A stretch of DNA of 64,000 nucleotides from Candidatus Obscuribacteraceae bacterium (GTDB taxonomy: Bacteria; Cyanobacteriota; Vampirovibrionia; Obscuribacterales; Obscuribacteraceae): NCBI GenBank assembly GCA_044226015.1, contig JBGAHS010000003.1, positions 192,001-256,000 on the forward strand, read 5' to 3'. Below the pieces are notes generated by a model. The model saw only the letters and a list, made by a program, of their open reading frames with translations. It was not told the DNA's origin and ran no database searches. The translations under genes were made by a program, and so were the position numbers. The number at the start of each line of letters is the position of its first letter. Position 1 is the stretch's first letter. Positions 5,099 through 8,940 of the stretch are shown piece by piece.

Positions 5099-6133
5099 CT
5101 AAAACGAACTCAGCATCCGACGCATGCGGCGAGCATTCCTACCAAAATACTGAACCCCATTTCCACCGCTGCTGCGAGCCATTTTCTTCTGCTTCATAGG
5201 TTTATTAACGAGCTGTCCACTCATGTCGCGATCGTCTTCATGCTTCTCATATTTCTGTCTGCCGTAGTCGGTGTAAGCAGCAACATCAAAATCCTGATAT
5301 TTCACAAATGGGCGTTGAGCCAGCCGCTCGTGCATAATTACATCTGTGGTTTTGAAGGCTGAATTCAACATTTTATTGTCATTCGCCTGCAAAGCCTGCA
5401 CGGCCAGACTGGCATTCAATACGGTGTCGGACTGATACGGACGAGTTTTCGCCTCATACTTTTGATCAAAGCCCTGCATTCGACTGCGTTTTACCATATC
5501 GTGCGGATGCTCTTGAATGTGAGCAAGGTGCATCTGAGAGAACATTCGATTCTTCTGCCCTTGTGTCAAACGAGGGTCCTGATAGATTCGAAGAAGTTGC
5601 ATACCAAATTGAAGTTCTCGAGTTAGATCTTGAGGTGCCCAATACCCCGGCAAACAATGCAAAACAGTTCCGTCTGGAGCCATCATGAAAAGCTGCAAGT
5701 TATGCGGCCCCGCACCATTGGTCGTCACTATGCCTTTTCCATCTGGTGCATGCCGCCCGGAAACGCCACAGTAAGGCTCATTCTCAATGTCTTTCGCCCC
5801 GCAAACGAAATTTTGCTTCAAGTAAGAAAACGCGGGCTCTTGGGAAAGGGACACGTCCCTCAGGCTATTGCCAGCACTTCAAGTTTTTCCGTTTAACGGA
5901 CCTAGCATGTGCATAAAAAATATAGGCTTATTCTGCTGTTGGGCAGCCCGCCTCGTATTGTCAAACGTCGTGTACCAGGGAATCTCGGTAGTCAATTTGG
6001 TGATTCGAGCGAAAGCGTCTTGCCCATCAACCATCTTTGAAGGAGCGCCCGTAATAGGAACTGCCATTGCCAAACCATTTGATGCAAGCACCGATGCAAA
6101 CAGCAAACCTGGCAGAATCTTTCGCAAATTCAT
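5099..6133 (-). CDS. Probable exported thioredoxin-fold (SelN-like) selenoprotein, UGA at codon 85
   Basis: Track ORFs 5879..6160 and 5099..5854 are in one frame, separated only by TGA (5879-5881) and 8 sense codons: KPIFFMHMLGPLNGKT-U-SAGNSLRDVSLSQEPAFSYLKQNF. ATG at 6133 has a GAGGT RBS and a signal peptide. Confidence 0.8.
5847..5860 (-). promoter_or_regulatory. Candidate bacterial SECIS hairpin
   Basis: AGGGA-CGUG-UCCCU; the loop starts 23 nt after the UGA and has G at loop position 2 followed by U. Confidence 0.55.
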
Positions 6134-6285
6134 TTGCCGACCTCGATAAAATAGGAACACAATTCTAAGACGTCAAACCAGAAGAAAAAGTTCAATTCCC
6201 AAGATAAAAAATTTCATCTGGGAGCTTATATTCATAATTGATCGTCGCCTCTGCTATAGTCAAGCCAAGGAGCTTAGACAATGCC

Positions 6286-7722: not shown

Positions 7723-8940
7723 ATGTCTGAAACTCAAGACAAGAGATTTGACGGTACTGATAAAGCAGAGGCAGAGAATCAGGAAACTCCAAATCCGTTT
7801 TTCGACGAGGTATCCAGAGACCAGAAAACTGATTCTCGAACTAAGTCTCAAGATGATTCAAAACCCTCGAACACCGATGCAAACTTACCAAACTTCGAAA
7901 TTACTAACGAGTCCGAAAACACAAAAAATACCAGCGGTGACGCAAATTCTCGAGACGTTAATAAAACCGAGAAGTCGCAAAACAAGGCGGCTTCAGATAA
8001 ATTCGGTCCGGGCAGCGTACTAGAAGCGTTCGAGACTGCAAAGCAACTCAATATTCCTGTAATTGTAAACAGAAACATGGACGCTTGCGCCCCCAGCCAA
8101 CAGTCCAATAAAGCGGTCGACAGTTATTTCAAAGGAAATGCCGCTGCGGAAAAAGCTCCCGCCGTGCTAATTGACTTGAATCTCAACAAACTAGACAAAA
8201 TGAGGCAAGAGCATGCGAACCTGCCAGATGGACCCCAGAAAGACAGAATGGGCGAAGAGCTAAAGCTGGCTGACCAGCTGATGAATGCAGGAAACGGACA
8301 GTTTCCAAAAATCAGCAGGTATGACGCAAAAGATAGCTCGACCCCACAAGAAACCATCACTGGAGCTAATCGTCAGAGCATGGATCGACTGATTCACGAA
8401 GATAAGTTGAGTGACAAAGACAACGACAAAAGCAGCGACAAAGGCAATGACAATGACAAAGCCGGCGAAAGTGCCGAGCAAGCGCCAGACAAAAACGCAA
8501 ATCAGAAAGCAGAAAAGGTCCTCAAATTCTCAGACAAAGACATAGCCAGTGCGAAGGAGTATGCCGAGCAACATAAACTTCCGCTGATAGTATTTACTGG
8601 CGGAGACTTCTGCGCACCGAGCCAAGCAGCTGCAGTCAAACTAGACAAGCTTGCCAACAATGTTGCTAACGAAGCTGAACCAAAAGCTGTCATAGTGAAA
8701 CTCGATTTGTCAAAGGCGCAGACAGAACAAAACTCAACTGCGGCAGAAAAGAATGGACGCTCGAACGAGAGCTTACAACTAGCCTCAGAATTGACGAGCA
8801 AAATTAGTCAGATTCCTCATGTCGGGGTCTACAACCCAGGCAACATGAAGTCTATAGGAACACTTAATTTAAACGCTGACACAGCAACACAGCTGAAACA
8901 AGTTTCTAACGCGAAAGAAGCAATGGACAAGCGTCCTTAA
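7723..8940 (+). CDS. Protein with disordered N-terminus and two thioredoxin-like domains (CxxS)
   Basis: AKQLNIPVIVNRNMDACAPSQ and AEQHKLPLIVFTGGDFCAPSQ, each later followed by a beta strand and a QFP/QIP cis-Pro-like motif. Confidence 0.75.
   Translation: MSETQDKRFDGTDKAEAENQETPNPFFDEVSRDQKTDSRTKSQDDSKPSNTDANLPNFEITNESENTKNTSGDANSRDVNKTEKSQNKAASDKFGPGSVLEAFETAKQLNIPVIVNRNMDACAPSQQSNKAVDSYFKGNAAAEKAPAVLIDLNLNKLDKMRQEHANLPDGPQKDRMGEELKLADQLMNAGNGQFPKISRYDAKDSSTPQETITGANRQSMDRLIHEDKLSDKDNDKSSDKGNDNDKAGESAEQAPDKNANQKAEKVLKFSDKDIASAKEYAEQHKLPLIVFTGGDFCAPSQAAAVKLDKLANNVANEAEPKAVIVKLDLSKAQTEQNSTAAEKNGRSNESLQLASELTSKISQIPHVGVYNPGNMKSIGTLNLNADTATQLKQVSNAKEAMDKRP

Follow-up and report, generated by a model that had tools for sequence, protein, structure and literature searches.

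Selenoprotein N (SelN), an animal muscle-disease protein, is defined in the available text of its descriptions by a transmembrane anchor, an EF-hand, an SCUG motif, and Arg466 (PMC12839072, PMC8967691), and according to the available text of two papers the SelN recoding element (SRE) adjoins the UGA codon (PMC8967691, PMC5727441). SREs have been proposed to derive from bacterial SECIS elements (bSECIS), a derivation that the accessible part of the source argues from SPS genes (PMC4561486). The bSECIS model, as given in the accessible part of a selenoprotein catalog, has a loop of 3 to 9 nt with a G within its first two positions, located 16 to 37 nt after the UGA, and a stem of at least four pairs with an energy of -7.5 kcal/mol or lower (PMC13188914). 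The accessible part of the same catalog lists 119 prokaryotic selenoprotein families in its Table 1, among which we found no SelN-like entry and no motif or domain model matching the family described here (PMC13188914).

A review, in its accessible text and on the basis of an early survey of about 600 genomes, counts Cyanobacteria among the lineages that appeared to lack selenocysteine (Sec) (PMC9312934), and Obscuribacter phosphatis is described in the available text of its report as capable of aerobic and anaerobic respiration (PMC4040986). Term searches of the accessible text of PMC13326102, PMC12013277, PMC5029168, and PMC13578239 returned nothing on this family or on Sec in this lineage, and literature searches reaching neither subscription papers nor bioRxiv supplements turned up no description of the family, of Sec in Obscuribacterales, or of a bacterial SelN. 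The accessible part of the BSepDB genome list contains at least 18 Vampirovibrionia rows, with none named Obscuribacter in that class among the rows listed; BSepDB entries may nevertheless hold Obscuribacterales selenoproteins of known families.

We analyzed a window of 64,000 nt from a Candidatus Obscuribacteraceae bacterium, a non-photosynthetic cyanobacterial relative. Judged by its sequence, the window contains a member of an uncatalogued, putatively Sec-recoded, and predicted exported family with a SelN-type thioredoxin domain. Considering all of the evidence jointly, the gene is likely a stand-alone Sec-recoded gene whose product would be an exported one-selenol oxidoreductase.

A single reading frame contains one TGA codon

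The original prediction was that two separately called ORFs share one frame and are split only by the TGA at 5879-5881. This proved exact, as a single frame of 344 codons runs on the minus strand from the ATG at 6133 to the TAG at 5099, with exactly one in-frame TGA (codon 85, 5881-5879). The predicted 344-aa read-through product and its quoted peptide were likewise exact on this strand, which the prediction had left unstated; a plus-strand reading of 5099-6133 was ruled out as its frame is closed. The features of the locus, all on the minus strand, are as follows.

6141..6144: ribosome-binding site GAGG, 7 nt 5' of the ATG at 6133 (sequence)
5099..6133: whole gene, 344 codons from ATG to TAG with one in-frame TGA (same single frame in homologs)
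6062..6133: residues 1-24, predicted to form a cleavable signal peptide with a basic start, hydrophobic core, and A-M-A end (hydropathy heuristic, 24 family members)
5579..6010: residues ~42-185, a thioredoxin-fold domain with homology to the catalytic domain of SelN (AlphaFold2 model, fold searches, profile comparisons)
5879..5881: TGA codon 85, putative Sec, in the motif G-x-T-U-S-A-G-N-S-L-R, preceding helix 86-95 (TGA conservation and Cys homologs)
5844..5861: bacterial SECIS-type hairpin across codons 92-96, with loop CGUG at 5855-5852 (folding and comparative evidence)
5852..5854: GTG (Val94) in the hairpin loop, a start for gene callers but probably not a real start (ORF calls, database matches, conservation)
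5216..5566: C-terminal domain, mostly helical, residues ~190-306, with many near-invariant His, Arg, Asp, Glu, and Tyr and no family assignment (AlphaFold2 model, conservation)
5102..5215: basic tail of low confidence with a predicted helix at its end (pLDDT ~50; basic ends in most members)

As anticipated for standard annotation, gene calling with table 11 splits the gene into ORFs at 5879..6160 and 5099..5854, and database matches mostly begin at query residue 91-105 or stop at 84, indicating that the family is stored as halves. The second ORF had been thought to have poor ribosome-binding site spacing, and we indeed found a GAGG just 3 nt upstream of its GTG at 5854-5852, within the hairpin stem. 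The gene was unchanged in contigs from two DNA runs across the stretch, either of which may be the source of this DNA.

We detected no conserved operon, with two flanking genes common to only 3 of the best 80 of 279 confirmed loci. In the window, the gene is followed by a TPR/aspartyl-protease gene and is divergent from a NAGPA-family gene on its other side, a neighborhood that offers no clue to a pathway, and scans for promoters and terminators were at chance level. Elsewhere in the window, an ORF at 7723-8940 on the plus strand encodes two Thioredoxin_7-like repeats, but linkage of this ORF to the selenoprotein gene was not seen in relatives.

Most homologs conserve TGA or encode Cys at column 85

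Homologs had been expected to show either Cys or a conserved TGA at this column, and both were observed. We confirmed 279 loci from 313 candidates. In the best 80, which were mostly titled Candidatus Obscuribacterales, Obscuribacter, or Melainabacteria and share 47-67% protein identity, column 85 was TGA in 80 of 80 with frames open on both sides. Two subfamilies were distinguished, and TGA was also found in 30 of 30 subfamily-1 loci covering the column (a set drawn from 32 loci, one of which gave no row and one of which was a distant paralog; this set overlaps the 80 loci, and the counts are not additive). Apart from the internal stop itself, nothing favors a nonsense mutation, a pseudogene, or a sequencing error, and an invariant TGA at this level of divergence between frames open on either side refutes all three; sequencing error in particular is excluded because the TGA is conserved.

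The protein was matched in 31 of 61 related genomes, often at several loci per genome. The host genome itself carries paralogs at C8:156923-157798 (45% identity) and C8:472403-473518 (26%), each with one TGA. The latter, on the plus strand (L024, L083), heads subfamily 2, which is ~26% identical to the window protein, has TGA at 16 of 16 loci, and has a C-U motif with Arg at U+4 that is nearer to SelN than the motif of the window gene.

Among 14 full-length database homologs, column 85 was Cys in 8, Trp in 2 (P0003 and P0011), Ser in 1 (P0013), and Ala in 3 (P0083, P0093, and P0104). The Ser and Ala homologs suggest that the fold can persist without a redox residue. P0003 is approximately the same protein as that of locus L049, whose DNA has TGA at this position, and the Trp of P0003 is most likely an artifact of gene calling. 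Two Cys homologs belong to clusters with members named Planctomycetota. More broadly, a distant match occurred in 17 of 300 other genomes of the phylum, 16 of them without an inner stop. When residues 10-150 of P0152, a naturally occurring Cys homolog, were searched in the ESM Atlas, hypothetical proteins were returned (best 0.85), which we regard as a lead only.

A further possibility is that UGA is a real stop, with a short exported peptide followed by a C-terminal protein separately started at the GTG at 5854. The GTG of codon 94 is invariant (80 of 80 in the best 80 of 279 loci) with GAGG nearby, and databases carry the two halves, all of which would suit such an arrangement. A real stop, however, would sever the thioredoxin domain at the active site. 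The protein sequence of codons 86-93, which separate the TGA from the GTG, is conserved; neither TAA nor TAG takes the place of the TGA in any of the best 80 of 279 loci; and the Cys homologs are single proteins. We consider separate translation of the two halves very improbable.

Sec machinery accompanies the family

The host genome (8.19 Mb, 92% complete) contains selA, selB with its wing-3 domain, selD, and tRNA-Sec, all above cut-offs, such that each of the four genes that the original prediction called for checking was present. The tRNA-Sec scored 64.7 bits against a cut-off of 47 and has anticodon UCA, a long variable arm, and a G discriminator.

Decoding of UGA as Cys, Trp, or Ser through a special tRNA or an altered code was also weighed, and Cys insertion by an unusual tRNA had been raised as an alternative from the outset. 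The Trp residues in P0003 and P0011 and a G.G mismatch at the eighth acceptor pair of the tRNA could be read in its favor. Against it, the DNA underlying P0003 appears to be TGA, TGA terminates 600 of 2,281 long ORFs of the genome and is thus an ordinary stop, the sole UCA tRNA among 72 is the one scored as tRNA-Sec, and the family distribution follows selA/selB. Other decoding is thereby left with hardly any probability, and the Cys-inserting tRNA found no counterpart in the genome. In contrast, reading of the in-frame UGA as Sec appears nearly certain. The acceptor stem deserves a separate observation. In the tRNA-Sec of the host's family of genomes (G000:C11:1300243-1300341, L001; L054-L082), this stem has seven pairs and then a conserved G.G mismatch, or else a bulged G, and the eighth position is paired in tRNA-Sec of three sister-family genomes. 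Variant tRNA-Sec shapes are known.

All 31 family-bearing genomes had at least one of selA, SelB wing-3, and tRNA-Sec, including G005 (70% complete; tRNA only) and G036 (65% complete; selB only). Conversely, 6 of 40 genomes of the same order lacked all three (five of them >90% complete), and the family was found in none of these six. Three genomes (G022, G033, and G034) had part of the machinery without the family, and among 21 genomes of other orders in the class, none had the family and two had selA. These genomes are kin, so that the co-occurrence counts are non-independent and are given without a P value. As an internal control, SelW/Rdx genes of the machinery-less genomes G023 and G030 had no TGA.

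Several related genomes showed features that we record in their own right. In G032 (96% complete), selA is in two pieces (C267:18502-19189), the family gene has an extra TAA (C376:11055-11417), and no Rdx gene was found, which may mean that this genome is losing Sec use or that its assembly contains errors. At L018:2527-3135, selD is immediately followed by a gene that we take to be that of a YedF-like selenium-metabolism protein. In some relatives, a family gene lies within ~12-16 kb of selB or tRNA-Sec on the same contig (G019:C16:23616 and C16:8791, G024:C8, G026:C30, and G017:C183).

Three further read-through frames in the host genome match known selenoprotein types, each with a hairpin 3' of the UGA, and are probable selenoprotein genes.

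G000:C1:284037, minus strand: SelT/W/H, TIGR02174 above cut-off
G000:C8:209217, plus strand: TPR-thioredoxin with UxxC
G000:C11:321099, minus strand: ArsC-family NF041106, above cut-off

The genome-wide read-through scan that recovered the three paralogs was non-exhaustive; within it, 3 of 6 candidate selenoproteins are members of the window family. The host SelD is the Cys form, and a search for an in-frame stop in its four molybdopterin oxidoreductases found none. Because half of the candidates belong to this family and SelD and the molybdoenzymes do without Sec, the family may be a main reason that a lineage capable of aerobic respiration, as the accessible text on Obscuribacter phosphatis describes it, keeps Sec machinery. 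Possible further selenoproteins are DsbH-like matches in two other genomes of this phylum (G067:C169:14816-15043 and G081:C30:22857-23051), each of which contains one in-frame TGA.

A hairpin after the UGA is under synonymous constraint

A GC-rich hairpin with a CGUG loop had been predicted 23 nt downstream of the UGA. The loop and the distance were confirmed, but the hairpin (GAGGGA-CGUG-UCCCUU, 5861-5846) is only moderately GC-rich, with three GC, two AU, and one GU among its six pairs. Its loop begins 23 nt 3' of the UGA and has G-U at loop positions 2-3, and the hairpin agrees with the bSECIS model in loop, G, distance, and stem as these are specified in the accessible part of the source (PMC13188914). 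By itself, the hairpin folds no better than shuffled sequence (z of +1.0 to -0.9 across four stretches); the isolated stem has -6.4 kcal/mol versus -7.5 in the published model, and the 50-nt region has -13.4 with a z of -0.53. We take the hairpin as real because of comparative evidence and not folding energy.

Synonymous constraint was ranked in the best 80 of 279 confirmed loci over the 67 conserved columns whose codons are four- or six-fold degenerate. Codons 93, 94, 96, 95, and 92 ranked 1 to 5, with synonymous entropies of 0 to 0.87 bits in these hairpin codons and at least 1.12 in all others. Across the family, the stem pairs nt 21-26 with 33-38 around CGUGUC, and pairing was 4.9 of 5 compared with 2.39 (maximum 2.67) under synonymous randomization. 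G25-C34, found in 30 of 30 subfamily-1 loci, is replaced by A25-U34 in 15 of 16 subfamily-2 loci, and two-sided compensatory change within subfamily 1 was seen in 0 of 6 pairs. The clade to which the window gene belongs (4 of 30 loci) has lost the C26-G33 pair of the family; its stem has slid by 2 nt, with the position of the loop G-U kept. Both the loop, which fits the accessible bSECIS model, and the constraint on codons 92-96 thus bear out the suggestion of a SECIS-type element with a loop G.

The predicted fold places the putative Sec at a thioredoxin active site

A signal peptide had been proposed, and an N-terminal hydrophobic stretch resembling one was found in 24 of 24 members, with a later transmembrane stretch in 0, by a hydropathy heuristic. 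Neither Pfam nor NCBIfam gave a match above cut-off for the window protein (P0001), and a sequence search of the PDB gave no match, with alignment yielding weak matches to 3ira and AGR2. An AlphaFold2 model built from 37 sequences, with Cys substituting for Sec, had a pLDDT of 88.5 and a pTM of 0.83. Foldseek returned nothing at E 0.001, with thioredoxin-fold chains ranked first, and VIA-align gave a list dominated by such chains, headed by 3f9u (Z 10.1, rmsd 2.5, 110 aligned), 2lst (9.3), and 3ira (8.5); this fold search barely probed the C-terminal domain. The predicted topology is that of thioredoxin, and its active-site helix carries the redox residue at the N-end. A profile alignment places residue 85, which precedes helix 86-95, on the 3ira CHWC motif at its first Cys. 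The predicted model and this alignment together place U85 at the redox position of a thioredoxin fold, as had been supposed.

Gly or Ala occupies position +3 in every one of the best 80 of 279 loci, leaving no resolving Cys and neither a CxxC nor a UxxC. Other Cys residues are conserved in the same loci at C111 (68 of 80) and C160 (75 of 80), and H128, H144, H205, H209, H268, D223, E227, and D264 are near-invariant. The NGAGPHN and LPGYW loops are invariant, which suggests a fixed substrate, and in a thioredoxin fold these loops would border the active site.

We propose that SelB would bind the in-frame hairpin and deliver Sec-tRNA(Sec), enabling the UGA to be translated by the standard bacterial system, and that the product would be exported through its predicted signal peptide. 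The lone Sec would occupy the first, nucleophilic position of the thioredoxin active site, and a resolving Cys is absent three residues further along. Outside the cytoplasm, such a one-selenol oxidoreductase would reduce or reshuffle a specific oxidized thiol substrate selected by the C-terminal domain together with the NGAGPHN and LPGYW loops, and would be recycled by an outside reductant. The conserved TGA, the machinery, the constrained hairpin, and SelN-domain homology all favor the original prediction of Sec insertion into an exported redox protein, in which Sec itself is inferred.

The one-selenol redox role is the function we favor, with less assurance than Sec insertion. As the main alternative, Sec may be inserted into a protein that is no thiol oxidoreductase, with Sec85 binding a metal or metalloid or attacking a small molecule for which the C-terminal domain, rich in His, Asp, and Glu, provides the binding site. 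The lack of a resolving Cys at +3 in the best 80 of 279 loci would accord with this role, as would the near-invariant His, Asp, and Glu residues listed above and an Asn that replaces the Pro of the SelN cis-Pro loop. However, Sec lies at the canonical thioredoxin nucleophile position in the 3ira profile alignment, and the nearest profile match is SelN, a redox domain, which makes a metal or small-molecule role rather unlikely.

The window protein shares a domain with SelN

Resemblance to the catalytic region of SelN had been proposed. In our comparisons, it held for a thioredoxin domain of ~110 residues (profile E 4e-14) but not for the remainder of the protein, and the gene is no SelN ortholog. 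The family profile aligned with a SelN profile over 112 columns confined to the SelN C-terminal domain (P 97.2, E 4e-11), and domain-only hhalign gave 107-112 columns with P up to 98.5 and E from 3e-15 to 4e-14. The subfamily-1 domain matched eukaryotic SelN at E 4.4e-14, compared with 1.6e-5 and 1.5e-4 for two DsbH-type control sets and 0.008 for a Trx7 set (15, 5, and 5 sequences, respectively). Reciprocally, a six-frame search of the genome with an HMM of 18 eukaryote-type SelN domains ranked the three paralogs first (E 3e-6, 6e-4, and 2.5e-3), with the next match at 0.07.

The SelN set was drawn from 44 loci returned by a short-motif scan of metagenome contigs, with a pattern taken partly from the consensus of the window family, and its SelN identity rests on database names, as one locus was searched and both UniRef and NCBI give its matches the name Selenoprotein N. 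Of 196 matches in an alignment-based, word-seeded search for homologs, the 120 listed included none named as eukaryotic. In a domain tree (65 rows, 144 columns, with 12 of 24 subfamily-1 rows), a SelN clade supported at 100/97 excluded the window subfamily; its join, supported at 92/97, was with subfamily 2 and with the Cys type S-C-A-N-S-R. Due to long branches this join is unsure, and the tree gives no root or direction.

The window protein has T-U-S-A-G-N, with Asn at U+4, where the available descriptions of SelN give S-C-U-G with Arg at U+4 (PMC12839072, PMC8967691). An EF-hand was detected in the SelN control and not in P0001. On the sequence comparisons made here, the window protein shares a domain with SelN and would act in a similar way, but is not a SelN.

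Separately, a full-length gene for a SelN-like lipoprotein at L263:1170-2393 on the minus strand encodes S-C-U-G and has a SECIS-type hairpin. We judged this gene to be bacterial because it lies upstream of type IV pilin-like genes. A SelN ortholog of Poribacteria is reportedly the subject of unpublished or thesis work.

The hairpin and the putative SRE share a predicted axis

The predicted hairpin was centered on one common axis (pair sums 57-60) in 0.90 of 72 subfamily-1 sequences, 0.69 of 16 subfamily-2 sequences, and 0.83 of 30 eukaryote-type SelN sequences, compared with 0.12-0.19 after synonymous randomization. In the eukaryote-type SelN loci, a long stem begins 6 nt past the UGA with its apex on the axis of the bacterial hairpin. 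This stem is taken to be the SRE, whose offset from the UGA presumably fits a stem at 6 nt. L263 has the same stem sequence as the family, in an unchanged register.

One speculative scenario, which we consider less likely than not, is that the window family, the C-U paralogs, bacterial full-length SelN, and eukaryotic SelN descend from one bacterial selenoprotein domain, with the SRE of animal SELENON being the surviving bacterial SECIS of that ancestor. The resemblance between SRE and bSECIS could instead be convergence through common Arg and Leu codons and the narrow bSECIS window. Common Arg and Leu codons do favor the hairpin register, in eukaryotic SelN only 3.53 of 5 pairs form in the exact register versus 2.86, and the bSECIS position is constrained generally, with sums of 50, 54, and 56 in three other host genes. 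Mariotti et al. (2015) proposed that eukaryotic SRE hairpins derive from bacterial SECIS, and the window family provides a second gene family for testing this idea.

Comparison with known systems

The family would add a multi-paralog selenoprotein family, halved in databases, to a phylum that the accessible text of a review lists as Sec-less (PMC9312934). It also offers small, probably soluble relatives of the catalytic domain of SelN, a protein whose substrate chemistry is poorly defined; by sequence, we found in this analysis no solved structure related to that domain.

Like the bacterial Sec/SECIS system, the host has all four genes and an in-frame hairpin 23 nt after the UGA, and it differs in belonging to an order of Cyanobacteriota, which the accessible text lists as apparently lacking Sec (PMC9312934). 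Catalogued thioredoxin-fold selenoproteins (VPGUxxT NF041382/3, Trx7/PDZ NF041199, Sec.1, Sec.2, and SaoT) likewise combine a thioredoxin fold with an active-site Sec, but the window protein has no NCBIfam match of that kind, motifs differ in the accessible catalog (PMC13188914), and relatives match weakly, with E at best 4e-4 and a cut-off of 275 bits.

The thioredoxin-fold branch is shared with Thioredox_DsbH/DUF255 (PF03190), Thioredoxin_7 (PF13899), AGR2/3, DsbD-gamma, and UAS, and this branch supplies the best structural matches (3f9u, 2lst, 3ira, and 3ph9). In contrast to the DsbH/Trx7 group, the window protein has a single Sec in place of CxxC and reaches 12.4 versus the Pfam cut-off of 27 bits. 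Uncharacterized Cys homologs of Planctomycetota and photosynthetic cyanobacteria (the S-C-A-N-S-R type and others), which are hypothetical or unnamed, share the domain superfamily and have Cys in place of the putative Sec of the window family.

With SelN, the window protein has in common a Sec seven residues ahead of a conserved Arg, the lack of a Cys at +3, a luminal or exported location (predicted here), and a hairpin directly after the UGA. It differs in being without the transmembrane anchor, EF-hand, and central domain of SelN, with the thioredoxin domain starting at approximately residue 42; in its other C-terminal domain; in its in-frame bacterial SECIS, as opposed to the 3' UTR SECIS of SelN; and in the Asn that its family has where SelN has the Pro of the thioredoxin cis-Pro loop.
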